In this document: piece after piece, positions 9,774-64,000 of the stretch
How the letters are laid out: each line of letters opens with the position of its first letter
Position numbering within the stretch: the first letter of the stretch is position 1
NCBI GenBank assembly: GCA_965372535.1
Contig: CBDVCR010000001.1
Span: 11,290 to 75,289, forward strand
Length of the DNA stretch: 64,000 nt
Reading direction: 5' to 3'
Source: an uncultured bacterium
GTDB taxonomy: Bacteria > Nitrospirota > Thermodesulfovibrionia > Thermodesulfovibrionales > JdFR-86
Translations under genes and position numbers: made by a program
Notes under the pieces: generated by a model
Database searches by the model: none
Seen by the model: the letters and a program-made list of their open reading frames with translations, nothing else
What the model was told of the DNA's origin: nothing

Positions 9774-9774
9774 G

Positions 9775-11316: not shown

Positions 11317-11369
11317 ATGGGCCTTTCCCGGTACAAACCGTTCACATGAATATGCATGGATGACCCTTG

Positions 11370-11385: not shown

Positions 11386-11486
11386 CCCCGTGGTCTTGCC
11401 GCGGGGTTGCCAACTCCTTGCCTTTTCGGGATACCCTGAGGTCTCTGCCGCCCTTCCGGCGCCGGATTTGCTTCTTCTCCGGTGAA

Positions 11487-11873
11487 ATGGCGCTCTGGTC
11501 AAAGAAAAAGATACTTTTAATCGACGAGGCCTGCTTTTCCCGCATCTGCTCCGCCATCCTTGTGTCCGAGGGTTATCATATCGAGACGGCGTCGGGTGCC
11601 GGGAGCCTGTCGCCGCTTCTGAACTCCAACGAGCTGGGCTTGATAATTACGAGCTATCCCTACGGAGCGTTCCTTTTCGAGAAGCTCAAGGCCGGGGGGA
11701 TTCCGGCCATAATCCTGTCCGACCAGATAAACCTCGAACTCATCAACATACTTGAGGGGTTCAATCGTTCCTACTGTTTGATAAAGCCCCTTGACTACCG
11801 GAAGTTCAGGACCCTGGTAAAACGCGTCATGAGCGGCGACATGGGCATCAGCGGAGGGTATAACATTGTTTAG
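11487..11873 (+). CDS. receiver-like (pseudo-receiver) single-domain protein
   Basis: REC-like pattern: ILLIDEA, then LGLIITS where the phospho-acceptor Asp is expected, then IILSD and LIKP. Confidence 0.55.
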   Translation: MALWSKKKILLIDEACFSRICSAILVSEGYHIETASGAGSLSPLLNSNELGLIITSYPYGAFLFEKLKAGGIPAIILSDQINLELINILEGFNRSYCLIKPLDYRKFRTLVKRVMSGDMGISGGYNIV

Positions 11874-14619: not shown

Positions 14620-14635
14620 GCATGGAGGAGGGCGC

Positions 14636-15436
14636 ATGAGGGTTTCGGCGTTTTTTCTTTTTATCGCCCTGCTTCTGCCGCAGTGGGTTTTCGCGGAGGA
14701 CTATATTATCGGCGAGGGCGATGTCCTGCGCGTTTCGGTCTGGGGCGAGGAGCAGTTGAGCCTGTCCGTTAAAGTCAGGCCGGACGGGAAGATTACCGTC
14801 CCCGCCCTGGGCGACGTGAGGGCGGCGGGGCTTACCACAAAAGCCCTGCAGAGGCTGCTCACGAAAAAATTGACCAGGCTTATCAAGAAACCCGTCGTCA
14901 CCGTGATAGTCGAGGAAATAACCAACAACAAGGTCTACGTCTTCGGCGGAGGGGTGAAATCCGGAATTTACAACCTCACGCGGAGGACCACCCTTTTGCA
15001 TCTCCTCTGCCAGATAGGCGAGTTGGACAACGCCGACCTCAAAAACGCCTATGTGCTGAGGAAAGGCGTGAAAGTAAAAGCTGATTTCCACAGGCTTTTC
15101 GTGGAGGGGGACATGACCGAGGAGGTGGCGATAAAGCCCAACGACGTGGTTTTCATCCCGGGCGTGGTCGATAAAAACGTATACGTGGTGGGCGCCGTTC
15201 AGAGGCCCAGGTTTATAGTGTACAGGGAGGGCCTGACCGTAATGGCCGCAATACTTGAGGCGGGCGGTTTCACGAAGTTCGCGAAGCTCAACAGCATCGT
15301 CGTTTTCCGGGAAAACGGGGGCGAAGAGCTTGCCATAGCCGTGAAGGCGAAAAAACTGATGCAGGACGGCGAGCTGGAGCAGAACGTAAAACTCAGGCCA
15401 GGGGATTATGTGGTCGTAAAGGAAGGGATGTTTTAG
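14636..15436 (+). CDS. polysaccharide export protein (Wza/EpsE-like, Poly_export + SLBB)
   Basis: Signal peptide; GDVLRVSVWGEE motif; PGDYVVV soluble-ligand-binding beta-grasp ending. Confidence 0.85.
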   Translation: MRVSAFFLFIALLLPQWVFAEDYIIGEGDVLRVSVWGEEQLSLSVKVRPDGKITVPALGDVRAAGLTTKALQRLLTKKLTRLIKKPVVTVIVEEITNNKVYVFGGGVKSGIYNLTRRTTLLHLLCQIGELDNADLKNAYVLRKGVKVKADFHRLFVEGDMTEEVAIKPNDVVFIPGVVDKNVYVVGAVQRPRFIVYREGLTVMAAILEAGGFTKFAKLNSIVVFRENGGEELAIAVKAKKLMQDGELEQNVKLRPGDYVVVKEGMF

Positions 15437-31257: not shown

Positions 31258-32568
31258 ATGAGATTACAAATGGATCCTAAACGGAAAGCGAATATCTCTT
31301 TTGCTCTTTGGGTGCCTTTTATCTGGTACGCGTTTGCTGTATCGCAAAGTCCCAGCCATTGGTTAAATCAATTTGGCGATAGTATAAGGGCGAGTTACCT
31401 GGGAGGTAACCCTGTCGAGAGAACTGTATATAGTATTTTTATAGCTATAGGAATATTAATACTTTTAAGAAGAAAAGTAGACTGGTCCCATCTGCTAAGA
31501 AATAATACATGGATTTTTGTATTGTTCCTTTATATGGCAATCAGTATACTCTGGTCCGATTTTAGAGGGGTATCCTTCAAAAGATGGATAAAAACAGCCG
31601 GTGCTCTTGTGATGGTTCTGATAGTCCTTTCAGAGTCCAAACCTTTCGAGGCAATGACAACACTGTTAAGGAGGTGCTTCTATCTTTACCTTCCGCTGTC
31701 GATCATATCTATCAAATATTTTCCAGCTATTGGTGTAACTAAAGATGGGCTGTCTGAAATGTGGAAAGGGTTGACATTACATAAAAACACTCTTGGTCAA
31801 GTGGTTATGGTCAGTGGGATCTACTTCCTATGGAATATTATGAGGGCCGGGAAAAGAAAAAAAATATACATTGACCTTTCTTATTTATTAATGGCACTGT
31901 GGTTGCTAACCGGCTCTCGTAGCGTTACATCAATATTCGGGTTTTTGTTCGGTGTCTGCATATTATTCATGCTTCACTTTATGAAATCAAATCCGAAATA
32001 CATGGGGAGGCACATTATAATAGGTATTTTTTTCATTGCTTTTTCCTTCTTGATTTTTGAACTTGCGGTAGAATCATTTGCCCAGGAAACATTACTAACA
32101 CTCGCTCTTGAGAGGTCAGGACGTGATATGACATTTACCGGAAGAATACGCCTTTGGAATGACATTATAGACATTGCATCCCTTCATTCAATATTGGGAA
32201 CCGGATATGGTAGTTTCTGGATCGGAGACCTGACACATGATTTATGGGAAAGACACCGCTGGAGGCCGGGACAGGGACATAATGGCTATATAGATGTCTA
32301 TGTTGAACTTGGTTTTGTAGGCGTATTTTTACTTATAGCTGTAATATTGTCTGCATATAGAAGTACAATGAGAAATTTTGCGGTTAATTTTGAATATGGG
32401 AGATTTCGCATGGTACTTCTCTCAATAATCTTATTGTGCAATATCACCGAATCAAACTTTCTAAACGGAACAAATAATTTGTGTTTTCTTTTTCTTCTTG
32501 CCGCAGTGAATATCTCAGATATTTCTCACTCTCATCATAAAAACATAGAAGATAAGCATAAGACTTAA
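31258..32568 (+). CDS. O-antigen ligase/polymerase-family polytopic membrane protein (Wzy-like)
   Basis: About 10-12 transmembrane helices with a large loop containing ..GHNGYIDVYVELG.. Confidence 0.7.
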   Translation: MRLQMDPKRKANISFALWVPFIWYAFAVSQSPSHWLNQFGDSIRASYLGGNPVERTVYSIFIAIGILILLRRKVDWSHLLRNNTWIFVLFLYMAISILWSDFRGVSFKRWIKTAGALVMVLIVLSESKPFEAMTTLLRRCFYLYLPLSIISIKYFPAIGVTKDGLSEMWKGLTLHKNTLGQVVMVSGIYFLWNIMRAGKRKKIYIDLSYLLMALWLLTGSRSVTSIFGFLFGVCILFMLHFMKSNPKYMGRHIIIGIFFIAFSFLIFELAVESFAQETLLTLALERSGRDMTFTGRIRLWNDIIDIASLHSILGTGYGSFWIGDLTHDLWERHRWRPGQGHNGYIDVYVELGFVGVFLLIAVILSAYRSTMRNFAVNFEYGRFRMVLLSIILLCNITESNFLNGTNNLCFLFLLAAVNISDISHSHHKNIEDKHKT

Positions 32569-32629
32569 TAAGAAATAATCAACAGATTATCTGCATTTGA
32601 AAGAAATTCTATCAAATAGGGAAAAGCAT

Positions 32630-33538
32630 ATGGGAAACTGTCATATTTGTGTATGCATTTGTACATATAAGAGACAGCAGTATTTAGAGTTTTTATTAAA
32701 AAGGCTCCAAGATCAAAGGACTGATAGGTTATTTACCTACTCCATAATCGTAGTTGACAATGACCATGAGATGTCCGCAAAAAGTATTGTTAACGATATG
32801 AAGAAAAAATCCTCAATTGCCATAGATTATTACGTAGAGCCTGAAAAGAATATCGCCCTCGCAAGGAATAAGGCTATCCAGAATGCAAATAGTGATTTTG
32901 TGGCTTTTATTGATGATGATGAGTTTCCTGTTGATGAATGGCTCTTGTATCTATACAAAACATATAATTTTTACAAGGCCGATGGTGTTCTTGGACCAGT
33001 AATGCCACATTTTGAGGAAAGACCTCCTGAATGGATACAAAAGGGCAAATTCTGTGAAAGGCCAGCTTATGAAACAGGAACGGTAATGCATTGGAGAAAT
33101 ACTCGTACAGGTAATGTTCTGCTCAGCAAGAATATTTTTAAAGATGGAGACAATGTATTTAATCCTGCGTTCAAAGTCGGGGGTGAAGATGTCTATTTTT
33201 TCAAGGAAATGATTGATAAAGGATATGTTTTTATTTGGTGCAATGATGCCAATGTATATGAAATGGTCCCGCCTACTCGTTGTAAAAAAAGCTATTTTTT
33301 GCGAAGGGCATTCCTCTCGGGAAACGTATCATTAAATTATTTTAAAAAGAATTTACAAAATAAAGCCTATATTCTGATAAAGTCTGTAACCGCATTTAGC
33401 ATATATACTCTCATTTTACCTTTCACATATTTTTTCGGAATTCATATTTTTTTAAAGTATTTAATTAAAGACATAAATCATATTAGCCGTCTTTTGGCTT
33501 TATTTGGAATAGTACGTGTTAAAAAGAGAAATCTTTAG
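32630..33538 (+). CDS. family 2 glycosyltransferase
   Basis: ICVCICTYKR..IIVVDND..FIDDDE (DxD motif). Confidence 0.85.
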   Translation: MGNCHICVCICTYKRQQYLEFLLKRLQDQRTDRLFTYSIIVVDNDHEMSAKSIVNDMKKKSSIAIDYYVEPEKNIALARNKAIQNANSDFVAFIDDDEFPVDEWLLYLYKTYNFYKADGVLGPVMPHFEERPPEWIQKGKFCERPAYETGTVMHWRNTRTGNVLLSKNIFKDGDNVFNPAFKVGGEDVYFFKEMIDKGYVFIWCNDANVYEMVPPTRCKKSYFLRRAFLSGNVSLNYFKKNLQNKAYILIKSVTAFSIYTLILPFTYFFGIHIFLKYLIKDINHISRLLALFGIVRVKKRNL

Positions 33539-33599
33539 ATAATATTCTTACCTTGAAAAAGAATATATTGTTTGAATAAATTGATCTGAAAGGAGCATT

Positions 33600-34727
33600 T
33601 TGCCTGTGAATAAGTTATTGATCATATCCAATCGGGTAATGCATTATAGGGTTTCTGTTTACAATTATATTTCTCGGAGGTTTAAACAACATGGCTGGGA
33701 ATTCATTGTTAGAAGCAACGAACTTCAAAAGCAAAACCCCCACCCCTTGGAATTCGATTTCAAGGAAATTGAATTCAAATTTAATAGATATAAAAGGGAA
33801 ATCGAAGAGATCAAGCCGGATGTTGTAATAATTTACTTGCGTCTTAAGGACTTTATTGTCTGGCCATTAGTTCATTGGCTGAAGTTGAAAAAGATACCCA
33901 TTGTTTATTGGACTATAGGTATTAATCTTTACGACTCGGATAATAAGTTTAGACATCTATTTTTCAATCATATTCACAGCATATGTGACGGCATAATTCT
34001 GTATTCAAAACATGAAATTAAATATATCAAGGGGAAAAATAGAAACAAAATATCAATTGCAAATAATACTTTAAATTTTGAAGACTTTCCTGAAATAAAT
34101 ATATCTAAAGAACAGATAAAGGAAGAGCTTGGCATTCCTTTTGAGAAAGTTGTTCTCTCTGTGGGCAGGATGGGTGTCGAAAATCAGAGAAAAAAGGTTC
34201 ATCATTTAATCGAGATATTTAATGGTATAACAATGAAGGGAACTGGCCTTGTTATAGTTGGATCTGGAGTAAACAATGATCTGTTGAAGAAAATGAATAA
34301 AGATAATACAATTTATCTTGGAGAAATACACGATCATCATCTAATAAGCAAAATATTTAAAATGGCTGATATATATTCGATACCTGGCAATGTTGGCTTG
34401 AGTTTAAACCAGGCATTTTATTGGGGGTTGCCGGTAATTACCGCGAATGGATTCCAAGGTCCGGAATTTTATTACCTGATCAATGGATACAATGGATTCG
34501 TTGTTCCGAATAATGATCTATCAGAACTCAAGAAAAAGATACTGCATTTATTGAAAAATGATGATATCAGACTGGAATTCTCTAAAAACGCAAGAGATTA
34601 TATCCTGGAAAACGCATCTGTTAGTAATATGTTCATGGGTTTCAAGAACTGTGTAGATTCTTTATTTGCTCATCGCGTTAAGGAAAAAAGAATCTTCAAT
34701 CGAGGAAAGTTATCAATTAAGAGTTAA
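33600..34727 (+). CDS. family 4 (GT-B) glycosyltransferase
   Basis: The C-terminal half matches the Glycos_transf_1 pattern (..GRMGVENQRKKVHHLI.., ..E..G L.LNQAF..GLPVI). Confidence 0.8.
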   Translation: MPVNKLLIISNRVMHYRVSVYNYISRRFKQHGWEFIVRSNELQKQNPHPLEFDFKEIEFKFNRYKREIEEIKPDVVIIYLRLKDFIVWPLVHWLKLKKIPIVYWTIGINLYDSDNKFRHLFFNHIHSICDGIILYSKHEIKYIKGKNRNKISIANNTLNFEDFPEINISKEQIKEELGIPFEKVVLSVGRMGVENQRKKVHHLIEIFNGITMKGTGLVIVGSGVNNDLLKKMNKDNTIYLGEIHDHHLISKIFKMADIYSIPGNVGLSLNQAFYWGLPVITANGFQGPEFYYLINGYNGFVVPNNDLSELKKKILHLLKNDDIRLEFSKNARDYILENASVSNMFMGFKNCVDSLFAHRVKEKRIFNRGKLSIKS

Positions 34728-34830
34728 ATGATGAGTGTGATTTGTATCACGTTTTTTTTTATGGTTTTCCTTTAATTTATTAATATAGCAGATTTAATCT
34801 GCTCTGAATGCAAAGTGCAGAGGAGAAGAT

Positions 34831-35973
34831 ATGAAACACCTGACATTTCTTTTAGTGATAATATGCTTATTTATCGGAGGTGGGAAAACCTATGCAGGTG
34901 TTATCCAGGCTGCAAGTACATCCCGGGCAGACATCCAGGCGGCTATAAACTCTGCAAGTGACGGTGACATTGTAGTAGTTCCGGCAGGTATTTCTACATG
35001 GACCAGCAGGGTTACCATATCCGCTCAAATTACTCTACAGGGTGCGGGGCAGAGGAAAACTGTTATTACAAAGACGGGTGGGGATTACGCATTATATGCA
35101 AACGGAGTTGATAACTTGAGGATTACGGGATTCACGATAAGGGGTGGCAACTATTCGTCAAATGGCATCAATCTTGCTGGAAACCCAAAAGGCTTCCGCA
35201 TTGATAATAATAAGTTTACTCAATGTACCGGAAGCGCAGTTCAGATACGGGGCTATGCGAAGGGAGTAATTGACCACAACAATTTTATTGATAATCAAAA
35301 ATATGATGTTGTTATATATGGTGATAATGATGCGGGATGGCAGAGGCCGATAAATTTAGGAACAGACGAAGCTGTTTATGTCGAGGACAACTATTTTGAA
35401 CATACTAATACCCCAAGCAATGCACATTCCATAGCATCTAACCACGGTTCACGTTATGTCTTCAGGTACAATACAATTAATGACAACGGCAGTCTTAACA
35501 CGGTTCCAATCGACGCTCATGGAAATTGCTACTATGGGCGGGGAAGTGTTAGTTATGAGATTTATAATAACACTATAAATTCAGAGCATAGTTATAATGG
35601 AATGGGCATCAGGGGGGGGACAGGCGTCATATTTGGCAATACCTACATTGGCGACTTCACTAATCCGATTTATTTGACTAATTATCGGTCATGGAAAACT
35701 AATTGTTCTACGGGCGGTATAGTCTCTGCATACCCTGCTCCTGACCAAATTAATAACCTCTATATTTGGGGTAATATATACAATGAACAACCGCTAACAT
35801 CAGTTACCATAGCTTCAAGCGGTTACGCTTTTGACCATATTCAGGAAGATAGGGATTATTATTCTGAAAGACCTAGTTATACGCCATATGTATATCCACA
35901 TCCACTTACCGGTGGTGCTGATACTACTAGTCCATCTCCACCATCAAACCTGAGGATTGTGCAGTTGCAGTAG
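34831..35973 (+). CDS. secreted right-handed parallel beta-helix protein (pectate-lyase-fold; possible EPS lyase/modifier)
   Basis: Signal peptide and repeated ..I.GN.F.. beta-helix rungs. Confidence 0.6.
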   Translation: MKHLTFLLVIICLFIGGGKTYAGVIQAASTSRADIQAAINSASDGDIVVVPAGISTWTSRVTISAQITLQGAGQRKTVITKTGGDYALYANGVDNLRITGFTIRGGNYSSNGINLAGNPKGFRIDNNKFTQCTGSAVQIRGYAKGVIDHNNFIDNQKYDVVIYGDNDAGWQRPINLGTDEAVYVEDNYFEHTNTPSNAHSIASNHGSRYVFRYNTINDNGSLNTVPIDAHGNCYYGRGSVSYEIYNNTINSEHSYNGMGIRGGTGVIFGNTYIGDFTNPIYLTNYRSWKTNCSTGGIVSAYPAPDQINNLYIWGNIYNEQPLTSVTIASSGYAFDHIQEDRDYYSERPSYTPYVYPHPLTGGADTTSPSPPSNLRIVQLQ

Positions 35974-45220: not shown

Positions 45221-45345
45221 AAAAGAGCCGCCGGAGAAATCCTCTCTGGCGGCCCGGCGGACATAGGATAGCGTTTGCTGACATCCTTTAGTCCCGTCGC
45301 TCTGCGTCCCCGGGTTTCCCCAGGTTTGCTCTGAGCAGAGAACCT
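45221..45345 (-). promoter_or_regulatory. GEMM-I (cyclic-dinucleotide) riboswitch-like leader with intrinsic terminator, upstream of the crp-like gene
   Basis: The RNA reads ..CAGAGCAAACC-UGGG-GAAA-CCCG-GGGACGCAGAGC..GGAC-UAAA-GGAU..AUCC-UAU-GUCC.., then GCCGCCAGAGA..UCUCCGGCGGC-UCUUUU. This matches the Vc2 core GGCAAACC..GAAA..GGGACGCAAAGC. Confidence 0.75.
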
Positions 45346-48764: not shown

Positions 48765-48893
48765 AAAAAAAGCCGCCAGAGAAATATCTCTGGCGGCACG
48801 GCGGGCATGGGACAGCTTATCTCCGGGCCGTCCTTTAGCCCCGTTGCTCTGCGTCCCCGGGTTTCCCCGGGTTTGCTCTGAGCAGAGAAGAAC
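48765..48893 (-). promoter_or_regulatory. GEMM-I (cyclic-dinucleotide) riboswitch-like leader with intrinsic terminator, upstream of the FN3/PKD gene
   Basis: It has the same architecture as 45221-45345, with compensatory base-pair changes. The terminator GCCGCCAGAGA..UCUCUGGCGGC-U7 ends about 20 nt before the RBS. Confidence 0.8.
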
Positions 48894-52790: not shown

Positions 52791-52851
52791 TTGTTCCGTA
52801 GGGGCTAAAGAGGCGCCTTGACCGGGGGGGCGATAAAATTTTATCCTTAGC

Positions 52852-54231
52852 GTGATGAAAAAACCGTGGGCAGGAAGGTTCAGCGAGGCGACGGCAAAGG
52901 CTGTTGAGTCGTTTACGGAGTCCGTCTCGTTTGACCGCAGGCTCTGGAAGTACGATATCGAGGGCAGCATCGCCCACGCCCGCATGTTGGGCAGACAGGG
53001 AATAGTCTCAAAAAGCGAGTCCGAAAAGATTGTGAGGGGCCTTGGGGAAATCGCCTCCTCCATGGAAAAGGGGGAGTTCGCCTTCAGCGAGGAACTCGAG
53101 GACGTACACATGAACATAGAGGCCGCTTTGGTGGAAAAAATCGGCCCCGCGGGCGGCAAGCTCCACACTGCGCGTAGCCGCAACGACCAGGTGGCCCTGG
53201 ACCTCAGGCTCTATTTAAGGGCAGAGACCGACGAAATACTCGGCCTTATCGGAAGCTTGCAGGCCGCCATGCTTTCGCTTGCGGAGAGGAACATCGGCCT
53301 GATAATGCCCGGCTACACCCATATGCAGAGGGCCCAGCCCGTGCTCCTGGCCCACCACCTCCTTGCATACGTGGAGATGCTCGAAAGGGACCGGGAGAGG
53401 CTTACGGACTGCCAAAAGAGGATAAACGTTCTTCCCCTGGGGGCCGGGGCGCTTGCGGGCACGAGCCTCCCCATCGACAGGAAATACGTGGCCGAGCTTC
53501 TGGGTTTCAGGGCCGTGGCGGCAAACAGCATCGACGCGGTCTCGGACAGGGACTTCGCCCTTGAGTTCGTCTTCGCGGCAAGCATGGTCATGGCGCATTT
53601 AAGCAGGCTTTCCGAGGAACTGGTACTCTGGGCCTCTGAGGAGTTTTCGTTCGTCGAACTCCCCGACGCCTTTGCCACCGGATCGAGCATCATGCCCCAG
53701 AAGAAAAACCCCGACGTGCCGGAGCTTGTGCGGGGCAAGGCCGGGAGGGTGTACGGCGACCTCGTGGCCCTTCTGACGATAATAAAGGGGCTTCCCCTGG
53801 CCTATAACCGGGACCTCCAGGAGGACAAGCCCGCGGTGTTCGATACCGTGGACACGGTGAAGGGGTGCCTCGCGGTGCTTGCCGGGATGCTGCCCCGGCT
53901 CGGGTTCAACGAAAAGAGGATGTATGAGGCGGCCTCCAGGGCCTACTCCACTGCCACGGACGTGGCGGAATACCTGGTGGGAAAGGGCATGCCCTTCAGA
54001 GAGGCCCACGAGATGACGGGCAGGATAGTGGCTTACTGCATCGAGAAGGGCAAGGGCCTCGAGGAGCTGAAAACCGGGGAGTTCAGGAAGTTCTCCGGCC
54101 TGTTTGAAAGCGACATCTCCTCCCGTCTGAGCGCCGAGGCCTCGGTGAAATCCAGGAGTTCCGAGGGCGGCACCTCGCCCAAAGAGGTGAAGCGCCGCCT
54201 CAGAAGGCTGGCTTCCCGGATACGTAAATGA
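52852..54231 (+). CDS. argH: argininosuccinate lyase
   Basis: 459 aa with the signature [12 protein letters not shown]. Confidence 0.95.
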
Positions 54232-55151
54232 AGCCCGGGCCGAGGCTCCTCTGTTTAGTTGTTCTTTCATCACTCGTTGTCTCATGCGGAAAGAAAGCCC
54301 CGCCGAGGTGGATAGAGCCTGTGCCGCCCCCCGCGCCTTCCGCCCTGCGTGCCGTGGTCAGGGAGGACGCCGTCGTACTCAGGTGGGATTACCCTGAAGG
54401 AAGGGTAAAAGAGGGTTTCTTGGTTATGAGGGCCGCTCCGGGTGCGGAATTCGAGGAAATAGCCGTTGTGAAGGAGCAGGCGTATATGGACAGGGATTTC
54501 CTTGCGGGCGTTGCCTATGCATACAGTGTGGCGGCCCTGGGGAGGAGGGGGATGAAAAGCGGAAGCTCCAACCGGGTTGAGGCATCCCCCCCTTCGGGTG
54601 TTGCGCCTCCCTCCGGCCTTTCCTTCTCGATTCACGAAAACGTACTGGACCTCTCCTGGGAGCGCCCCTCGGGGGACGGCATGTTTAACATATACAAGAG
54701 TGCCGGGCAGGATGCCTATCCCATTGAGCCTGTAAATTCCGAACCTCTTGCCGGGGCTTCTTTCAGAGACATCCTGTCCCCGGAAGCCGCTGTCTACTAT
54801 GCTGTAAGGGCGGTCGAGCACGGCGCGTCCGAGGGAGTGACGAAGGAAAGCGCCCCAGCAGAGCTCCGGGTAGGGCCGGAGGACTATATCCCCTCCGCCC
54901 CCGGCGGCCTTGGGGCCGCGGTCGCGGACGGCAAGGTGGTGCTTTACTGGGACGAAAGCCCCGAGACGTGGGTGAGGGGCTACAGGGTCTACCGGGCGGC
55001 GGACGGCGGGGAGTTTGTGGATATTGGGGAATCGCGGACCCCGGCGTTCAAGGACCGGGAGCCCTTCAAGGGGAAAATGCGTTACCGGGTAAGCGCACTC
55101 GGGCCTGTCGGCGAAAGCGCCCTTTCCGGGGCAATAACGGTGTCCCCATAA
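54228..55151 (+). CDS. lipoprotein with FN3-like repeats
   Basis: Lipobox LVVSC; three ..LRWDYP../..LSWERP../..LYWDESP.. modules. Confidence 0.6.
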
Positions 55152-55308
55152 ATCCCTTTTCCCTTAACCGGCCGCCTGTATGAAGCATTGCTTTATATGA
55201 CAATTATGCGCTTCCTGAAGTGGGAGCATCTGTTGCTTGTAATGCCGGCGCATCTAACGCACAATGCGGATACAGGCTCCCGGCGATGTGATATAATCTG
55301 GTCACTGA

Positions 55309-56991
<1,683 letters not shown>

Positions 56992-57073
56992 GCCGCGTCA
57001 TCCCTTTGCCTGTGTGTTGAGTTCGCCCCCGTTTTTTTAGTCCGCCGGAAACGGCCTGTTTATAGGGCCGGGG

Positions 57074-57101
57074 TGGACATTTCCTTCCGCTTGTCTATAA
57101 T
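57074..57101 (+). promoter_or_regulatory. sigma-70-type promoter
   Basis: TGGACA, a 16-bp spacer, then TATAAT, about 30 bp upstream of the next CDS. Confidence 0.5.
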
Positions 57102-57131
57102 TAAAACTATGGCGCGCGTCTCAGGAGGGCC

Positions 57132-58193
57132 TTGGCCGTGAGAATCGCGGAACTTATCCTGCGGAGAGGAAGAGGCCCTTTCGCTTTGTCTCTGCTGCTT
57201 TCGCTCCCCATTGTCTGCCTTTTTACCCTTCTCCTTGCCGTCCTCCATATCTGGGAGGACGGCACGAGGCGGCGCAACTTCGAGATGCAGCTCAGGGAGT
57301 CGGCGAGGGCCCATTTCGAGCAGGTGGTGCTTACCGGGCTGTGGAACGCGCAGCACGGGGGCGTGTATGTAATGCTTGCCGAAGCAGGTTCACGCTCAAG
57401 CATGAGGGTCTCCCCGGAGGACACGGTAAATATCGGCGGCAAGCTGTACACAAAGCTCAACCCGGCGTATATCACCAGGCAGTTGTCCGAGATGGCAGCG
57501 GATAAAGGGTCTTTTATCAGGTTCCGTATATCGAGCCTTAACCCCGCTAACCCTTCCAACAGGCCCGGCAAGTGGGAGGCCCGGATGCTTCGCGCATTCG
57601 AAAACGGCGAGACGGAGGGGTACGGGATAATCGAGCAGGAGGGGTTGGAGTATTTCAGGTATATGTCCAGGCTGGTGGCAACCGAGGGATGCCTTGGCTG
57701 CCACTCGGAGCAGGGCCTGAAAGCCGGGGACATCATCGGCGGCGTAAGCGTAATCATCCCCGCGGGCCTGAACAGGGCGCTTCAGAGCGACATGAGAAGA
57801 CGGAGCATAATTGTCTTCAGCGTTATATGGGGCGCTACCGCCCTGTTAATCCTGGGCATTACATGGGTCTTGGCAAGGAGGCTCAGCCGGGGGGTCAAGA
57901 GCGAGGTGGAAGGCGAAAAACTCAAGAGCGCCGTAAGCATGGCAGGTGCGGCGGCCCACGAGCTCAGGCAGCCGCTGTCCATCATAATGGGGTTTTCCGA
58001 GCTTCTTAAGGACAAGGCGACAAACGGGGAGAACACCGACAGGGAGACCGAAATCATCATAAGCCAGTGCCGACGCATGAACGAAATCATCTCAAGGATG
58101 CTCAACGTCACCTCTTACAGGACTAAGTCCTACGGCGGCTATACCGAGATATTCGACTTCGGCCTGGAACCTGAAGAATCCTCCCGGAAATAA
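57132..58193 (+). CDS. DUF3365 (haem-binding, CxxCH) sensor domain fused to a HisKA-type dimerisation/phosphoacceptor segment, with no ATPase domain
   Basis: It has ..NPANPSNRPGKWE.., ..EGCLGCHSEQG..GGVSVIIP, a transmembrane helix and H-box AAHELRQPLSII. The protein ends about 70 aa after the H-box. The start is TTG 57132 or GTG 57138. Confidence 0.7.
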   Translation: MAVRIAELILRRGRGPFALSLLLSLPIVCLFTLLLAVLHIWEDGTRRRNFEMQLRESARAHFEQVVLTGLWNAQHGGVYVMLAEAGSRSSMRVSPEDTVNIGGKLYTKLNPAYITRQLSEMAADKGSFIRFRISSLNPANPSNRPGKWEARMLRAFENGETEGYGIIEQEGLEYFRYMSRLVATEGCLGCHSEQGLKAGDIIGGVSVIIPAGLNRALQSDMRRRSIIVFSVIWGATALLILGITWVLARRLSRGVKSEVEGEKLKSAVSMAGAAAHELRQPLSIIMGFSELLKDKATNGENTDRETEIIISQCRRMNEIISRMLNVTSYRTKSYGGYTEIFDFGLEPEESSRK

Positions 58194-58758
58194 CCCGCTG
58201 TAGTCGGTCACACAGTTTGGAATTATTGGCCATTTGATCTGAGATTTATTAAGAAAATAAGCGGGATTTGCCGGGAATAGTAAAGAATCGGCGGGATTTT
58301 CAAAAGTTATTTGACCAGTTAGGCATTCCGGTTATCGGGGAATATTTCTTATGGCAAAATCCTCCTTCTCTGAGCCTTGAACACCTGACAAAAAAATCGC
58401 GCTTTTGAGACTTTTTCGAGGAAAGCTCACCCTTTCCCGCTGATTCCGCAAAGACCGGCACGGGATAGGGCTGAACCTGGCCGAAAACCTCAGGGTCGAG
58501 TTCCGCTCCTGAATTGAAGGAGTAGTCCTTGCGGGTAAGCTGAAGAAGAGCATCGTCCATTAGTACGGTATGCCACATTGTCCGATTTTTGTGTGAAATG
58601 GCGCACCTCAATTACTTCGGGTATGCGATATCACACTAAATCAGCCTGATTTTCCGGTTGTCCCTTGCCGGGGAATCTCAATAAAAAAAATCATTTCCCG
58701 CTCAAACCCGCATGGATACTATTTTAGATAGTTTTGCATATTTAATTTGCCACCAAAC

Positions 58759-58774
58759 TGGCACGCAACTTGTA
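58759..58774 (+). promoter_or_regulatory. possible sigma-54 promoter (TGGCAC-gcaac-TTGT)
   Basis: The -24 element is perfect, but -12 is TGT rather than TGC. It ends about 12 nt before the riboswitch-like leader. Confidence 0.35.
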
Positions 58775-58786
58775 TGGAAGAGAGAG

Positions 58787-58918
58787 CCACCGAAAAGAGC
58801 AAAGCCGGGGTAACCGGGCGGCGCAAAGCCACCTGCCCTGAGTTAATCGAAGGGTAGAGGGGGTTGCCGAAGTGGAAAGAGCAGCATCTTCGGCCCGTCT
58901 TTTCGGAGGCGGGTTTTT
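58787..58918 (+). promoter_or_regulatory. GEMM-I (cyclic-dinucleotide) riboswitch-like leader with terminator, upstream of the transglutaminase-core gene
   Basis: The RNA reads CCACCGAAAAGAGCAAAGCCGGG-GUAA-CCGGGC-GGCGCAAAGCCACCUGCCCU..AGGGUAGAGGGGGUUGCCGAAGUGG. It aligns along its length with Vc2 (..GGGACGCAAAGCC..GGUAGCGGGGUUACCGAUGG). The hairpin CCCGUCU..GGAGGCGGG-U5 follows. Confidence 0.8.
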
Positions 58919-58945: not shown

Positions 58946-61930
58946 ATGGACTTCAGGCATACGCTTATCGCGAGGGCCGTATCATTTATAGTCCTGCTCC
59001 TGTTTTCGTGGACGTTCGCGGGCGTTTACGACGTGGCCTATGCTGTCAAGAACAGCGGCGAGTTATTCAACAAAGACAACCGTGTTCGCACCATAAGGGG
59101 AAAGACCGCCGCCGGGAAGTTCGAGGAGGCCGTCGAGCGCATGGAGGAGGCCCTTGCCGACCCCTCGCTTGAGATGAAGGACAAGAAGGGCCGGCTGGCG
59201 AAGGTCAGGTCAGAGATGGAGAGGCTTGCGGAAAAACTCAGGGAGGAGTTCGGGGCCACGGAAAAAAAGCTCAGGGAAGACGGGCTTCCCCCGGAGATAC
59301 TTGACAGGCATCATGATTTTGTAAAGCGCTTCGAGGAGAACCTGGACACGGTGCTCGAGCACATCGAGTCCATTGACCGGGCGGCAACGCATTCTGATTT
59401 CGACAAGCGGGTGGGAAAAGCTCTTGAGCATGTCAAAAAGGCAAAGCCGCCGAAGAAGCACGTTCCCCTCGACCCCGACAACCTCCCCCACCGTGCCGCC
59501 GAGCCCACCAGGAAGGAGCCCAGGCTCAAGAAAGAGGAGTTCATAAACGGCATGAGGGCACAGGCCGAGCCCATCCTTGTTGCCTCCACGGGTTCCCTTG
59601 CCGGGCTTCTGGATGAGAACTCACAATATATGCAGCTTGCCCTGGCCGTCGGGCTGCCCGGGCAGGCCGACCTTGCCGAGACAGTGGAGATAAAATTCAC
59701 TCCCGCCATACAGACCAGGGCCGAGGAGCTTGGCGGCAGGCCCCTTGCCATCTACGAGTGGGTGAGGAATAACGTGGAGTTCGTGCCCACCTGGGGCTCC
59801 ATACAGGGTGCGGACTACTGCCTTCAGACCATGCAGTGCAATGCCTTCGACACGGCAAGCCTGCTTATCGCCCTTCTCAGGGCCTCGGGCATCCCGGCCC
59901 GGTACGCCATGGGCACGGTGGAGATGCCCATGGAAAAAGTCATGAACTGGGCCGGAGGGTTTACTGATGCCAACGCGGCCCTTAACTTCATGGCCTCGGG
60001 CGGCATACCCGCAGGGGGGCTCGTCGAGGGCGGGCGGATAAAGGTCGTCCAGATGGAGCACGTCTGGGTGGAGGCATGGATTGATTACATCCCCTCGCGC
60101 GGGGCGCGGCACAGGCAGGGCGGAGGCGATACTTGGATACCCCTGGACGCGAGCTTCAAGCAGTATGCCTATACGGACGGCATGGACGTTAGCTCGGCGG
60201 TTCCATTTGACGCCGAGGGGTTTGCCGACGCCCTCATATCCTCTGCAATCATAAACGAGACGGACGGCTACGTCACCGGGGTGGACTCTGCCTACATCCA
60301 GCAGGCGATGAGCGAATATCAGGCTCAGGTCAGCGATTATATCACTACTAATCATCCTGACGCCACGGTGGGCGACGTTCTTGGAAAGAATGAAATCATT
60401 GTCCAGAAATTTCCGTATCTTCTGGGTACGCTTCCTTACAGGCTCAGGGTAACGGGGGCGCGGTACAGCAGTATGCCCGACAGCTACCGGCATAAGATCG
60501 AGTTCTACCTCGCCGCCGAGAGCATAATTTCCGGGTCAATGCCCATAAGCATCACCAGGAGCCTGCCCGAGCTTGCGGGGAGGAAGATAACGCTCAGCTA
60601 CTCTCCGGCCACTCCAGAGGATGAGGCGGTTATCAACTCCTATCTGCCAGAGCCCCATCCTGACGGCACGCCCATAGACCCCTCTGAGTTTCCGTCCTCG
60701 CTTCCGGCGTATCTGATAAACTTAAAGCCGGAACTGAGAATGGACGGCGAGGTGGCAGCCACGGGCGGGGCGATAGGCATGGGCCATATACAGAAACTCG
60801 ACATGACGTTTACATCTCCGAGCCATGGAAGCGGCGTGGTGGCAAACAAGGTCAATGCGGGCGAGTACTTCGGCATCGCGCTGGATTTGGCCGGGATATC
60901 CGGGCCGCAGATGGAGGCCGTCAAGGCGAAACTTGAGAGCACCAAGGCGAAGCTCGAGTCGGGCAACTACGAGGGGCTTACCAAGGACGACGTCTTGGGC
61001 GACCTGCTCTATGCCACGGCGCTTTCTTACTTCGCGGAGCTCGACGCAATGGACCACGTGCAGGCAAGGACAATGGGGGTGGTTGACATAAGGCTCCCGT
61101 CCGAGAATATTTTCAAGACGGCGCTGGAAGTGGAGCATTCCTTCGGCGTTCCCGTATCCGTTAGCGCGGGCGGGCTTGCGATGGACGCAGACAGGATGTT
61201 GAGCCTTTCGAAGGCCAGGGACGGAGACTATGAGAAGAAGAGGCAGTTCATGCTGGCCTCCGGGATGAACTCATCGGCCCTGGAGCACAGCGTGCCGGAG
61301 CAGTTGTTCTCGACGCCCGAAAACCCGGTCGAGGGGATAAGCGCGGTCAAGGCCCTCCAGATAGCCAACGGGCAGGGCATACCGATATATACGGTCACCA
61401 GGGACAACATCGCCGCGGTGTTTCCGCAGCTACAACTTGACCCCCGGGTGATTAATGATATTTTAAACGCCGTGAATGCGGGCATGGAGGTTACGGTCTC
61501 GAAGACGGACATAACCTACAACGGCTGGATCGGCTGCGGCTACCTCGTCATAAACCCCCTGACGGGTTCCGGCGGGTATATGATTAGCGGGGGTGCGAGC
61601 GGGGCAGTTTTGCTGGTGCTTACCCTTATTTTTAGTTTATTAGCGATAGTGACCGCCGCACCTACTGGCGGAATAGGAGCAGTTTTCTTTGGAATGCATG
61701 CTATTGCAACATTGGAAGGCGCAATCGCTGCATTGTATGGGAAGGATAAATTAAATGAATTTATGAATTGTTTAGTTAAAAGCGTTGCCAAGATTATTGT
61801 TAAAGATAAGACTGCTCACTATTTAAAACCGTATTTAATACCTGCAGTAGCTGTACTGTTACCTTACATCCTATCATTTACTGCTGGTTGGTCCATAGGT
61901 AAATGTATCAGTGACACATTTTACAATTAA
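58946..61930 (+). CDS. large secreted/membrane protein with a transglutaminase-like Cys-His-Asp core, a conserved pre-C-terminal block and a variable hydrophobic C-terminal cassette
   Basis: The ATG at 58946 follows a GGGGGAGG RBS, and there is a signal/anchor sequence. The core is QCNAFDTASLLIALLRASGIPARY, EHVWVEAW and WIPLDAS. The last ~105 aa are AT-rich at DNA level and transmembrane-like. Confidence 0.8.
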   Translation: MDFRHTLIARAVSFIVLLLFSWTFAGVYDVAYAVKNSGELFNKDNRVRTIRGKTAAGKFEEAVERMEEALADPSLEMKDKKGRLAKVRSEMERLAEKLREEFGATEKKLREDGLPPEILDRHHDFVKRFEENLDTVLEHIESIDRAATHSDFDKRVGKALEHVKKAKPPKKHVPLDPDNLPHRAAEPTRKEPRLKKEEFINGMRAQAEPILVASTGSLAGLLDENSQYMQLALAVGLPGQADLAETVEIKFTPAIQTRAEELGGRPLAIYEWVRNNVEFVPTWGSIQGADYCLQTMQCNAFDTASLLIALLRASGIPARYAMGTVEMPMEKVMNWAGGFTDANAALNFMASGGIPAGGLVEGGRIKVVQMEHVWVEAWIDYIPSRGARHRQGGGDTWIPLDASFKQYAYTDGMDVSSAVPFDAEGFADALISSAIINETDGYVTGVDSAYIQQAMSEYQAQVSDYITTNHPDATVGDVLGKNEIIVQKFPYLLGTLPYRLRVTGARYSSMPDSYRHKIEFYLAAESIISGSMPISITRSLPELAGRKITLSYSPATPEDEAVINSYLPEPHPDGTPIDPSEFPSSLPAYLINLKPELRMDGEVAATGGAIGMGHIQKLDMTFTSPSHGSGVVANKVNAGEYFGIALDLAGISGPQMEAVKAKLESTKAKLESGNYEGLTKDDVLGDLLYATALSYFAELDAMDHVQARTMGVVDIRLPSENIFKTALEVEHSFGVPVSVSAGGLAMDADRMLSLSKARDGDYEKKRQFMLASGMNSSALEHSVPEQLFSTPENPVEGISAVKALQIANGQGIPIYTVTRDNIAAVFPQLQLDPRVINDILNAVNAGMEVTVSKTDITYNGWIGCGYLVINPLTGSGGYMISGGASGAVLLVLTLIFSLLAIVTAAPTGGIGAVFFGMHAIATLEGAIAALYGKDKLNEFMNCLVKSVAKIIVKDKTAHYLKPYLIPAVAVLLPYILSFTAGWSIGKCISDTFYN
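61181..61611 (+). repeat. conserved ~430-bp block, copy 1 (inside the large gene)
   Basis: It aligns colinearly (constant offset 1186 bp, no indels seen) with 62367-62797 at high identity. It encodes MDADRMLSLSKARDGDYEKKRQFML...GSGGYMISGGASGAV. Confidence 0.85.
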
Positions 61931-61945
61931 CCGAGGAAGATAATT

Positions 61946-62275
61946 ATGCTGAACTTAATAAGAGAAAATCCCAATCTAATTTTAGGATTAATAATATTAA
62001 CTGCTCTGATTATTGCACTGCTTATTTCGATAAAGAGAGGTGACTATCATCACTCCTACAAGAAATCACTTATTATTTTTGGAGTTGGAATAATTGATTT
62101 AATTGTAGGTATTATCTTTAACTCGATTGAAGTCGGTCGATGGGATAAGGAAACAATTACATCATACTTATTCTTAAAAACCGATAATCTTATTTTAGTG
62201 ATTTTTGGTTATGTCTTTCTTGTAACTGGAGTCTTCCAATTCTTGGTTACAATTGTTAATCGCTTTAGGGCTTAA
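61946..62275 (+). CDS. small 3-TM membrane protein (candidate cognate/immunity partner of C-terminal cassette 1)
   Basis: 109 aa, GAGGAAG RBS, AT-rich, three hydrophobic helices. Confidence 0.55.
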   Translation: MLNLIRENPNLILGLIILTALIIALLISIKRGDYHHSYKKSLIIFGVGIIDLIVGIIFNSIEVGRWDKETITSYLFLKTDNLILVIFGYVFLVTGVFQFLVTIVNRFRA

Positions 62276-62313
62276 AGCTTAAGCAGCACGTTCTTTGACA
62301 ACATGGGAGGCAA

Positions 62314-62348
62314 GGCGGGCACGAAGGCTCAGAGTGTTCGTGCCCGCC
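62314..62348 (+). other. perfect 12-bp GC-rich hairpin at the junction before the orphan module
   Basis: ggcgggcacgaa-ggctcagagtg-ttcgtgcccgcc. No U-tract follows. Confidence 0.6.
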
Positions 62349-62366
62349 TTCAAAAGGAAGCGAAGA

Positions 62367-62797
62367 ATGGACATAGACCACGACATGGTGATGGTGAAGG
62401 CGCGTGACGGAGACGACGAGAAGAAGAGGCAATTCATGCTGGCCTCCGGGATGAACGGCTCGGCCCTGGAGCACTCGGTGCCGGAGCAGTTGTTCAGGAC
62501 ACCCGAAAACCCGGTCGAGGGCATATCGGCGGTCAAGGCGCTCCAGATAGCCAACGAGCAGGGCATACCGATATATACTATCGACCGGTCAAATATAAGC
62601 ACGGTCCTTCCTCAGCTTCAGGTTGATGCCCAGGTAATAAATGACATAAGGAATGCCGTGAATGCGGGGAAAGAAGTGACTGTCTCGAAGACGGACATCA
62701 GCTACAACGGCTGGACAGGCTGCGGCTACATAGTCATAAACCCCGTCACCGGCTCCGGCGGGTATATGATTAGCGGGGGAATGGCGGGGGCGGTTGT
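62367..62797 (+). repeat. conserved ~430-bp block, copy 2
   Basis: See 61181-61611. Confidence 0.85.
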
Positions 62798-63170
62798 TGA
62801 TATAGACGATATTAAGGTTATATGGTTTGGTATTGCCACAAACTTAATATTGTGGGGACCTATCATTATGGGTGTAGGAATGGCTGTCCCTATTGCTGGG
62901 CTTGCTTTGACTGGTGCAATAATCACAGGGCTTGGAGCAGGTATGGTGCTGAGCCAGATTCTGCCTGAAGAAGTTAAAGACTTCATTTTGGAAGCACTAT
63001 CAGATACCAGCGTCATGATTGGAATTCTAACTACCATGTCAATCTTGGGAATATCAACATGTTTATTTGCTGTTGTTGCTCTTCTTCTGCTTTACAATCT
63101 ATATGTACAAACACAAGCCAGTATAAATTATAGATTTCCATATTATTCGACAAAAAATACGTATGCATAA
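62367..63170 (+). CDS. orphan C-terminal module: a copy of the conserved block fused to a second, unrelated hydrophobic glycine-zipper-rich cassette
   Basis: MDIDHDMVMVKARDGDDEKKRQFML...GSGGYMISGGMAGAV is followed by a divergent ~125 aa (..GVGMAVPIAGLALTGAIITGLGAG..). An AAGGAAG lies 6 nt before the ATG. Confidence 0.65.
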   Translation: MDIDHDMVMVKARDGDDEKKRQFMLASGMNGSALEHSVPEQLFRTPENPVEGISAVKALQIANEQGIPIYTIDRSNISTVLPQLQVDAQVINDIRNAVNAGKEVTVSKTDISYNGWTGCGYIVINPVTGSGGYMISGGMAGAVVDIDDIKVIWFGIATNLILWGPIIMGVGMAVPIAGLALTGAIITGLGAGMVLSQILPEEVKDFILEALSDTSVMIGILTTMSILGISTCLFAVVALLLLYNLYVQTQASINYRFPYYSTKNTYA

Positions 63171-63186
63171 TAATTATGGATGAGAA

Positions 63187-63591
63187 ATGATAGAAAAAGT
63201 TATTTCATTAATTGTTATACCTGCAGCCTTGATTTATATAGCAGTTATTGCTAGGCAAAGATTGTATGCTTACATAGGAATAGTTTTTCTATTTCTGATG
63301 ATTTTGATGGCTTTTCCTGATACTGCTGTATTTTTCTCTCTCCATGAAAATTACTTTCCATGGGTGACAGAAAAAATGATATTTAATGCGATAACTACCA
63401 TAACTATAATTGTAGGGCTTATTTTAGCAATTCATTGTTATAAAGCAGAAGCAAAAGCTAAAAAAGAAGGCAATCCAATAATCTTAAAGAGCGATTTCAG
63501 GAAAATACTGGCTCCATCAAAAGGGAATATTACATTTTGGATTATTATCATTATTTATTACATCAGCACCAAGATATTTCTTGGCAATTAA
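63187..63591 (+). CDS. small 4-TM membrane protein (candidate cognate/immunity partner of C-terminal cassette 2)
   Basis: 134 aa, AT-rich, four hydrophobic helices. Confidence 0.5.
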   Translation: MIEKVISLIVIPAALIYIAVIARQRLYAYIGIVFLFLMILMAFPDTAVFFSLHENYFPWVTEKMIFNAITTITIIVGLILAIHCYKAEAKAKKEGNPIILKSDFRKILAPSKGNITFWIIIIIYYISTKIFLGN

Positions 63592-63632
63592 GGCTAAACA
63601 TATAAAGCAAAGGTTTTTACATATATAACAAA

Positions 63633-63751
63633 CCACCGAAAGGGCAAGGCCGGGGCGACCCGGCGGCGCAAAGCCACCTGTCCCATTAAGGATAGAGGGG
63701 CCGTCGAAGTGGGAAGAAACTTTGCCCACCCTTTCGGAGGTGGGCTTTTTT
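63633..63751 (+). promoter_or_regulatory. GEMM-I (cyclic-di-GMP type) riboswitch-like leader with terminator
   Basis: The RNA reads CCACCGAAAGGGCAAGGCCGGG-GCGA-CCCGGC-GGCGCAAAGCCACCUGUCC..GGAUAGAGGGGCCGUCGAAGUGG. The hairpin GCCCACCC-UUUC-GGAGGUGGGC-U6 follows. Confidence 0.8.
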
Positions 63752-63800: not shown

Positions 63801-64000
63801 ATGAAACAGGGGGGCATATTCATAACAGCGGTCATTACCTTAATCTTGATTTGCACGCCTGGCCCGGGCCATGCCCGGACGCCCGAGATAGAAAGCGGGC
63901 TCAATTACCTGGCCTCCACGCAGAACGCCGACGGCTCATGGGGCGCCGCCGCCTCCGCAACCGATTCCATGACCGCCACGGCCGAGGCGATAGGCGCTCA
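63801..64000 (+). CDS. secreted protein, N-terminal part (prenyltransferase/squalene-oxidase-type repeat beginning); the 3' end lies outside the window
   Basis: The ATG follows GGAGG, and there is a signal peptide. LNYLASTQNADGSWG resembles the terpenoid-cyclase/prenyltransferase repeat. Confidence 0.5.
   Translation, partial: MKQGGIFITAVITLILICTPGPGHARTPEIESGLNYLASTQNADGSWGAAASATDSMTATAEAIGA

Follow-up and report, generated by a model that had tools for sequence, protein, structure and literature searches.

Why does the base composition of one bacterial locus swing so sharply, first at the end of a gene and then again in a partial copy of that end? The locus lies in a 64,000-nucleotide (nt) stretch of contig CBDVCR010000001.1 from an uncultured Nitrospirota bacterium (hereafter the window), where a gene for a protein of 994 amino acids (aa) with a variable tail is followed by a small gene, an orphan fragment carrying another tail, and a second small gene. 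The initial annotation had proposed that composition falls exactly at the homology breakpoints, and that each tail had been imported horizontally along with its partner gene. We consider it likely that this is a polymorphic-toxin-type locus, and that the GC steps show where exchangeable cassettes have been joined to a host-adapted carrier gene. The elements concerned are as follows, in window coordinates:

58946 to 61930, forward strand: main gene, 994 aa (open reading frame (ORF), Pfam, homologs).
59726 to 60151, forward strand: transglutaminase-like core (Pfam, Foldseek).
61181 to 61594, forward strand: pre-tail block, copy A; GC 0.58, GC at third codon positions (GC3) 0.80.
61595 to 61930, forward strand: tail 1 (C-terminal tail, CT1); GC 0.39, GC3 0.31, 2-3 predicted transmembrane (TM) helices.
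61946 to 62275, forward strand: partner 1, putative immunity gene, 109 aa; 3 predicted TM helices, GC 0.30, GC3 0.27.
62313 to 62349, forward strand: GC-rich hairpin with a 13-bp stem, between the expressed pair and the orphan (folding).
62367 to 62779, forward strand: pre-tail block, copy B, in the orphan; GC 0.56, GC3 0.74, upstream body missing.
62780 to 63170, forward strand: tail 2 (CT2); GC 0.39, GC3 0.31, 3 predicted TM helices, glycine-zipper-like runs.
63187 to 63591, forward strand: partner 2, putative immunity gene, 134 aa; 4 predicted TM helices, GC 0.30, GC3 0.26.

In 200-nt sliding windows, GC content lies between 0.54 and 0.65 from 59.0 to 61.6 kb, between 0.29 and 0.41 from 61.6 to 62.3 kb, between 0.52 and 0.59 from 62.3 to 62.8 kb, between 0.27 and 0.43 from 62.8 to 63.6 kb, and between 0.48 and 0.63 beyond. 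The overall course runs from about 0.58 down to 0.34 at 61.6 kb, up to 0.56 in the repeated block, down to 0.34 again, and recovers at 63.63 kb. The alternation described earlier, with a GC-rich interruption at 62280-62800, is borne out by interval means of 0.339 (61612-62275), 0.560 (62280-62800) and 0.337 (62800-63600), and the expected steps at 61.6 and 62.8 kb are clear. The surrounding DNA had been called GC-rich like the rest of the chromosome, which is only roughly so: the mean of the whole window is 0.53, and the region from 26 to 41 kb is also GC-low. Across the 64 kb, just 4.6% of 660-nt segments have a GC of 0.36 or less, and all of them fall in the toxin locus or in a glycosyltransferase island at 32-35 kb.

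The homology boundaries are set by a direct repeat of 384 nt (61210-61593 and 62396-62779, about 81% identity), which at the protein level reaches back to 61181 and 62367 (80% identity). The longest identical run between copies A and B is 26 nt (61568-61593 and 62754-62779), placed exactly at a motif that ends the block. Change points were located by maximum likelihood, with 2-lnL (log-likelihood) support intervals given here in brackets. When all bases are counted, the two down-steps fall at 61732 (61605-61749) and 62968 (62793-63023). The up-step after cassette 1 is at 62283 (62258-62309), 8 nt past the stop of the first small ORF at 62275, and the one after cassette 2 is at 63633 (63627-63643), about 40 nt past the stop of partner 2 and on the first base of the next riboswitch; the delta-lnL of these four all-base points is 32-47. 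In GC3 alone, the change point in the main gene is at 61619 (61601-61628), with 0.79 before and 0.28 after, while homology ends at 61593. In the orphan it is at 62793 (62787-62796), with 0.75 before and 0.30 after, and homology ends at 62779. The third-position steps are thus 8-35 nt beyond the last homologous base of each copy. The claim of an exact coincidence therefore stands to within about ten codons at synonymous sites. Total GC falls in two stages, owing to an Ala/Gly-rich stretch that makes up the first ~45 codons of the tail. Each AT-rich block corresponds exactly to a tail and its partner: it begins just past the motif and ends shortly after the partner stop codon.

A fall of this kind could arise without any foreign DNA, as a coding artefact, since very hydrophobic membrane peptides, with much Ile, Leu, Phe, Lys and Asn, use AT-rich codons. 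All four cassette products are predicted to be multi-TM proteins, GC at second codon positions is low in the partner genes (0.26-0.30), and these genes are AT-richer than the body in low-GC hosts too. If the same amino acids were encoded with host codon usage, the expected GC would be 0.55 for the tails and 0.46 for the partners, already lower than the 0.59 of the body. However, the observed values are 0.39 and 0.30, about 0.16 under expectation in all four ORFs; amino-acid composition explains ~0.03-0.13 of the drop. GC3, which is 0.75 in the body, 0.80 in copy A and 0.74 in copy B, drops to 0.31 in both tails and to 0.27 and 0.26 in the small ORFs. Cassettes with soluble enzymatic tails are also AT-rich in GC-rich hosts: in four genome loci (L052, L068, L069, and L073), body GC of 0.48-0.51 gives way to 0.40-0.42 in the tail and to 0.33-0.35 downstream. 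Because observed GC lies below the host-codon-usage expectation, the cassette DNA is compositionally foreign and not merely hydrophobic-coding. Codon usage thus confirms that the drop sits at synonymous sites. Hydrophobic coding is a minor part of it and foreign synonymous-site composition is the remainder, so that a coding artefact as the sole cause is largely refuted by the synonymous-site analysis, and we regard it as highly improbable.

What kind of gene ends at such a boundary? The mechanical ORF starts at 58919 (1,003 aa), but the likely start is the ATG at 58946, which is preceded by GGGGGAGG. In the protein, a signal-like segment precedes a Transglut_core domain, a beta-rich middle and a conserved pre-tail domain, and the variable tail comes last. 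Its hydrophobic signal-like segment covers aa 7-25 and is followed by VAYA|V; this N-terminal region is conserved in homologs, which makes the protein a candidate for export. PF01841 (Transglut_core) matches with E = 1.3e-15 and 58 bits against a cut-off of 23, and no other Pfam domain is found in the 1,003-aa ORF at E <= 0.1. In an AlphaFold2 model compared by Foldseek with the PDB, the core matches 3isr and animal transglutaminases. The Cys-His-Asp triad is complete (C298, H372, D401), and His372 and Asp401 are conserved in the family. The putative nucleophile position 298 is Cys in 63 of 120 homologs and Gly in 56, so catalysis is not needed in many family members. Position 292, which together with 298 is encoded at about 59819-59839, has Cys in 66 and Thr in 54 of the same 120. 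Given these near-equal splits, positions 292 and 298 may co-vary, for instance by pairing in a disulfide or by setting an active subfamily apart from an inactive one.

Copy A terminates in the demarcation motif GWIGCGYLVINPLTGSGGYMISGG (61523-61594). The family motif, G-x-G-Y-x-[IV]-x-[ND]-P-x-T-G-x-G-x-Y-M-I-S-G-G, hardly varies among 120 homologs, and in fuller form the boundary reads GW.GCGYII.[DN]P.TGAGAYMISGG. A homolog search yields more than 1,835 proteins of about 1,000 aa with the same layout. Their hosts are Nitrospirota/Thermodesulfovibrionales, Geobacteraceae, Desulfuromonadaceae and others, so mainly Nitrospirota and Geobacter/Desulfuromonas-type bacteria. These proteins are 40-80% identical to the query up to about aa 885 and 6-13% identical beyond it. 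The 140-aa pre-tail domain that ends in the motif matches 2,983 cluster representatives, 1,844 of them at E <= 1e-10; in these 2,983 its distance from the C-terminus is always ~110-150 aa, and none of the proteins exceeds about 1,130 aa. Grouped at 50% identity, the family forms at least 1,800 clusters, and its pre-tail domain and cassettes are without a model in Pfam and NCBIfam alike. We rejected the possibility that assembly had created a chimera at the motif, since the two copies share no identical run longer than 26 nt, two assemblies contain the body-CT1 junction, and the GC step recurs in the isolate genomes of Geobacter argillaceus (L005), Geothermobacter (L063) and Geotalea (L068).

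A survey of the family covered 71 motif-anchored modules from 75 genome loci. An ORF is tightly coupled downstream of the tail in 70 of 72 modules, the 2 exceptions being at contig ends. Tail GC is 0.39 +/- 0.03 and that of the next 450 nt is 0.325 +/- 0.05, while body GC ranges from 0.31 to 0.60. Regression of tail GC on body GC gives a slope of 0.07 (r = 0.15, not significant), and body GC exceeds that of the downstream DNA in 70 of the 71. The outcome is a saw-tooth profile in GC-rich hosts, including the isolates Geobacter argillaceus, Geothermobacter hydrogeniphilus, and Geotalea toluenoxydans, and a step that is almost absent in low-GC hosts. In 22 modules from GC-rich hosts, GC3 goes from 0.6-0.7 to 0.29 within ~30 codons past the motif.

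Tails that had diverged in place, through fast evolution under diversifying or relaxed selection and a universal AT-biased mutation eroding GC, could in principle give low GC with no import. The same 22 modules do show a slight GC3 sag in the last ~40 codons before the motif, no donor has been found, and the cassettes form singleton clusters. However, the step is confined to 8-35 nt, and the tails are unalignable where a graded divergence would be expected. Among 79 homolog pairs whose bodies are 80-90% identical, related tails occur in only 11%, and in some pairs the tails are more similar than the bodies (94% against 83%). Tail and partner also switch jointly, with their types co-varying at an odds ratio of 72 (p = 4.5e-27). 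Finally, the CT1 family is found in hosts of 40% and 58% GC: the 40% host (L076) carries a CT1-type cassette with a tail 42% and a partner 34% identical to those of the window, at nearly the same GC (tail/partner 0.37/0.30 there, 0.39/0.30 here). Divergence in place is therefore very unlikely as the explanation. As for the sag, crossovers scattered through the conserved block would produce it.

Selection is a subtler alternative, in which AT-richness is favored whatever the origin of the DNA, either because it silences or attenuates cassettes and orphans, or because it slows translation of membrane toxins. It would account for the near constancy of cassette GC over hosts, for the absence of any GC3 above 0.46 among the 22 tails from GC-rich hosts, and for a family maximum of only 0.48 (in L007, where body GC3 is 0.53). 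Partner genes AT-richer than any host also fit. On the other hand, in low-GC hosts the tail GC3 of 0.29 is near the host GC3 of 0.33, so a pool dominated by low-GC hosts suffices without it. Selection is also compatible with horizontal exchange and does not replace it. As the explanation of the steps it seems quite unlikely. Modular horizontal exchange, as first suggested for this locus, is thus the best-supported reading: it draws on the synonymous-site drop, host-independent GC, tail swaps, and tail-partner co-variation, and from these we infer it for the two cassettes of the window.

The orphan (62367-63591) is a 3' body fragment fused to CT2, which is unrelated to CT1, and followed by its own partner. 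Because the composition of copy B is host-like (GC3 0.74), the orphan looks like a displaced resident tip with a piece of body, and not like an import. Orphans also occur in L020, L024, L038, L062 (two) and L063, with variable 5' truncation points. A Shine-Dalgarno-like AAGGAAG lies ~6 nt before the in-frame ATG at 62367 (62353-62369), a codon equivalent to Met746 of the main protein, a residue shared by all 27 full-length homologs aligned. Among short family ORFs from metagenomic gene calls, 14 of 120 begin at this MDxDR position. That orphans are, as a rule, internal-start products at Met746 was rejected given the variable truncation points among genome loci; translation of 62367-63170 alone, as a short toxin, is a possibility suggested by these signals. 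Ahead of the orphan, the region of the hairpin (62270-62370) folds at -44.7 kcal/mol (z = -5.9) with a weak U-tract (UUCAAAA), and the terminator scan did not call it.

Are the tails toxins, and the partners immunity proteins? The family has a conserved body and, beyond a motif, a hypervariable C-terminus of about 110-130 aa, a co-varying downstream gene, and orphan cassettes with 3' homology, all of which characterize polymorphic toxins. Recognizable toxin families are found in the tails of relatives, while CT1 and CT2 match none in Pfam or NCBIfam. NlpC/P60 is present in relatives' tails at 40.3 and 53.3 bits (Pfam cut-off 23), and a prokaryotic phospholipase A2 (PLA2) at 27.7 bits (E = 4.4e-6), just under its cut-off of 29.4. 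SLT, CHAP and Tox-ART-HYD1 give weak matches. Apart from Tox-ART-HYD1 (two matches below cut-off, of which one is in the window-distant locus L056), all tails that can be identified suggest action at the cell envelope, and there is no nuclease among the family tails scanned. Partner type follows tail type: when the tail has no predicted TM helix, 18 of 20 partners are 200-350 aa long with a single N-terminal hydrophobic segment (exported type), and multi-TM tails mostly have small multi-TM partners. This is what toxin/immunity pairs acting in the periplasm or membrane would look like.

Alternatively, the tail could anchor the protein in the membrane or serve in self-recognition, with the small membrane protein as its binding partner, by analogy with polymorphic identity systems such as IdsD/IdsE or TraA. 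The helical, hydrophobic character of CT1 and CT2 and their lack of toxin-domain matches would suit such a function, as would the absence of visible secretion machinery nearby, a large adhesin-like gene as a recurrent neighbor, and riboswitch control, which befits surface or biofilm functions. But other family members carry NlpC/P60, PLA2 and SLT-like enzymes at the same position, partner localization follows tail type as expected of immunity proteins, and orphan arrays and cassette replacement are typical of toxin systems. An identity or anchor role is hence rather unlikely, and we keep to the toxin/immunity reading.

Contact-dependent growth inhibition (CDI) provides one comparison for such a locus. 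In CdiA-CT/CdiI, a tail and immunity cassette follows a short demarcation motif, orphans retain upstream homology, and GC is often lower. Some CDI tails are membrane ionophores matched by small membrane immunity proteins, as with CdiA-CT of EC93. The locus described here shares the cassette after a conserved motif, the orphans with upstream homology, and the low GC (cf. PMC4725963), but it has no two-partner secretion (TPS) domain, filamentous hemagglutinin (FHA) repeats or VENN motif. No CdiB-like neighbor is present in the window, in L076 or in L077.

The Rhs C-terminal displacement model is closer, with its GC-distinct core, variable tips, and “dissociated” tips downstream; the GC signature seen here, and the fragments downstream, both have precedents in rhs and mafB (Jackson et al., 2009; PMC2935791). 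Both systems join a conserved, GC-distinct core to variable tips of other GC, exchanged from a large pool, and the host-like conserved block of the orphan fits a resident tip shifted downstream with a piece of core (PMC2935791). In evolved Salmonella populations, an orphan Rhs toxin comes to be expressed, according to Koskiniemi et al. (2014; PMC3967940). Unlike Rhs, this family lacks RHS/YD repeats and the PxxxxDPxGL motif, having GxGY..P.TGxGxYMISGG in its place, and its body of ~880 aa has a transglutaminase-like core and no PAAR, VgrG or type VI secretion system (T6SS) context. The core copies are 81% identical here, whereas rhs loci have identical copies (Jackson et al., PMC2935791). Zhang et al. 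(2012) describe Sec-dependent polymorphic toxins with an N-terminal inactive transglutaminase domain followed by RHS repeats. Set beside those toxins, the family has the same order of signal/TM segment, transglutaminase-like domain with partly lost catalytic residues, and variable C-terminal toxins, but no RHS repeats, and its His and Asp are conserved with the window protein keeping Cys as well. Geobacter is not mentioned in the 300,000 characters of that text covered here. MafB of Neisseria, cited in PMC2935791, is likewise Sec-dependent with a variable C-terminus, then an immunity gene and silent alternative cassettes; it differs by its DUF1020/MafB-N domain, absent here, and its taxa and body are unrelated. 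The phenomenon is ordinary for polymorphic toxin loci, and the pattern is already known from Rhs, CDI and MafB. The carrier family, the motif, the riboswitch control, and the giant neighbor appear to be undescribed in the literature and family libraries searched.

How might such a locus be controlled, and with what might it work? Regulatory elements flank it on both sides, and a further gene follows:

58788 to 58871, forward strand: cyclic di-GMP (c-di-GMP)-I (GEMM-I) aptamer in the toxin gene leader (RF01051, 53.5 bits; gathering score 35).
58892 to 58915, forward strand: intrinsic-terminator-like hairpin with U-run, the expression platform (terminator scan).
63633 to 63749, forward strand: second c-di-GMP-I aptamer (63633-63708; RF01051, 50.8 bits) with terminator (63724-63745).
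63801 to 64000, forward strand: start of the next gene, truncated where the window stops, with a prenyltransferase/squalene-cyclase-type repeat (weak, below cut-off) and a signal-like N-terminus.

Both leaders score above the Rfam gathering score and continue into terminator hairpins, as GEMM-I/GEMM-Ib (RF01051) riboswitches do, and ligand binding is predicted on that basis. They differ in the base equivalent to G20 of Vc2. The first aptamer has A there, as read from the RF01051 alignment, a GEMM-Ib-like signature for cyclic GMP-AMP (cGAMP) or bispecific binding; the second has G. In cGAMP riboswitches, G20 is replaced by A (PMC6140456). GEMM-regulated genes are known to include those of transglutaminase-like cysteine proteases (Weinberg, 2007; PMC1950547). 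With Rfam, the same aptamer family is found ahead of homologous genes in L005, L009, L013 and L014, that is in 4 of 8 Geobacter-type loci, and a regular-expression search upstream of homologs finds riboswitches in 4 of 53. The association of riboswitch and toxin gene is thus recurrent but not universal. The two leaders (58770-58918 and 63615-63749) are paralogous direct repeats of aptamer plus terminator that flank the toxin locus; compensatory changes keep their P1 and terminator stems, yet the ligand-specificity position differs. Recombination between them could delete the whole locus. The 64 kb hold four c-di-GMP-I aptamers, the other two being on the reverse strand (48789-48887 and 45245-45340), ahead of a PKD/fn3 surface protein and a Crp-family regulator. 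Three of the four have A at the G20 equivalent, the exception being that at 63633. The GEMM-Ib signature is best known from Geobacter, and the host here belongs to the Nitrospirota, where homologs of its Pgi place it as Thermodesulfovibrionales-like.

The next gene is a recurrent companion. In 19 of 39 loci, a homolog of its first 66 aa is encoded no more than 5 kb downstream of the toxin gene, and in L076 the neighbor (9659-15093) encodes a 2,664-aa Prenyltrans/TED/CARDB/FG-GAP protein. By this linkage, the giant protein is a candidate functional partner.

From these elements a working model can be proposed. A cyclic dinucleotide would lift termination in the leader, so that the toxin and immunity genes are co-transcribed; judging by the aptamers, expression is probably switched on by c-di-GMP and/or 3'3'-cGAMP, i.e. 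in the surface-attached state. The carrier protein would then be exported by Sec, and its transglutaminase-like domain may anchor it or bind peptides. The tails would be envelope- or membrane-acting toxins, with the multi-TM CT1 and CT2 probably perturbing membranes. They would attack the envelope of neighbors without the cognate membrane partner, and the small multi-TM proteins would be the cognate immunity proteins. New cassettes would come from a pool common to the lineages and mostly low in GC, its composition resembling that of the low-GC host majority. Homologous recombination within the conserved pre-tail block would attach them to host-adapted bodies, with the incoming tip pushing the resident one downstream as an orphan, as in Rhs C-terminal displacement. 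The orphan would remain as a reserve, since recombination between the two 384-nt blocks would remove CT1 together with partner 1 and give the body CT2 as its weapon. In the evolved Salmonella populations, expression of the orphan Rhs toxin reportedly arises by recombination with the main gene.

Several points weigh against this scheme. CT1, CT2, both partners, and the orphan have no significant Pfam or NCBIfam match; those to MerC, Saf_2TM and SfsA are weak, under cut-off, and were disregarded. The AlphaFold model, of moderate quality (mean predicted local distance difference test (pLDDT) 68, predicted template modeling score (pTM) 0.41), identifies nothing beyond the core, including in the pre-tail domain or with regard to export, and no type V, VI or VII secretion system (T5SS, T6SS or T7SS) is found in the neighborhoods examined. 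A donor or near-identical cassette was sought and not found: the best tails are 33-42% identical and the best partners 23-34%, with the closest relatives of CT2 at ~33% in the tail, and both partner proteins and the orphan ORF are singleton clusters at 90% identity. GC in the partner genes is lower than in low-GC hosts, too (0.31 against 0.38), which means that import from low-GC donors is not the whole cause; something beyond import, be it coding bias or selection, adds to the AT-richness of these genes. Lastly, because copies A and B are only 81% identical with a longest run of 26 nt, RecA-mediated switching between the blocks would be inefficient.

Beyond the steps themselves, it is a tentative suggestion, for which we would not claim an even chance, that the locus belongs to an undescribed polymorphic toxin family with a Sec-exported transglutaminase-like carrier, envelope cassettes, cyclic-dinucleotide riboswitch gating, and a linked giant thioester-domain-like/CARDB/FG-GAP protein as a possible display or delivery partner. 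The composition step is a textbook signature, and it marks the start and end of the exchangeable part, for both cassettes to within a few codons. It also draws attention to a large family without a curated model for its pre-tail domain or cassettes, whose hosts (Nitrospirota, Geobacter, and relatives) are anaerobes of environmental importance. Should these proteins prove to be antibacterial weapons under c-di-GMP/cGAMP control, they would link surface-attached life to kin competition, and if the proposed export holds true, they would represent a new Sec-dependent route for the delivery of envelope toxins. The host-independent GC of the cassettes is also a clean data set for weighing a mobile cassette pool against selection as the cause of AT-richness.

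The locus as a whole is bounded on its left by one further feature:

58199 to 58787, no strand: left edge of the strain-specific segment; GC 0.447, loss of synteny.

The two closest relatives, L078 and L079 (96.5% and 89.9% nucleotide identity), are collinear with the window over 52812-58198. Synteny ends at 58198 (L078) and 58196 (L079), 5 nt past the stop of a Tll0287/HisKA gene, and beyond the junction these relatives carry NifU/AmiC/amidohydrolase genes that are absent from the window. As read from synteny, the whole locus, including its GC-rich body, is an insertion or replacement specific to this strain; it extends from 58199 as far as 64000 or more, its right end being beyond the window. 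No tRNA is found in the window, and the ORFs at the left junction (58300-58611) have no Pfam domain, integrase or other, at E <= 0.1. The gene upstream of the junction (57132-58193) encodes a Tll0287-like, CxxCH-containing sensor with HisKA and no Pfam-detectable ATPase domain; it is kept in relatives without the toxin locus.

A few observations concern other parts of these genomes. A second AT-rich island in the window (31258-35973, GC 0.33-0.42) encodes Wzy/O-antigen ligase-like, GT2, GT1, and beta-helix proteins, and is a typical variable surface-polysaccharide cluster. In L078, an element of ~300-390 nt lies between an fn3 gene and pgi (3767-4153). It is absent at that site in the window, which has a copy elsewhere (6432-6746, reverse strand, 78-86% identical), and it may be a small mobile or repeat element. 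In Geobacter argillaceus (L005), a group II intron domain (RF00029, 57 bits; 12694-12767, reverse strand) lies ~1.4 kb downstream of the cassette.

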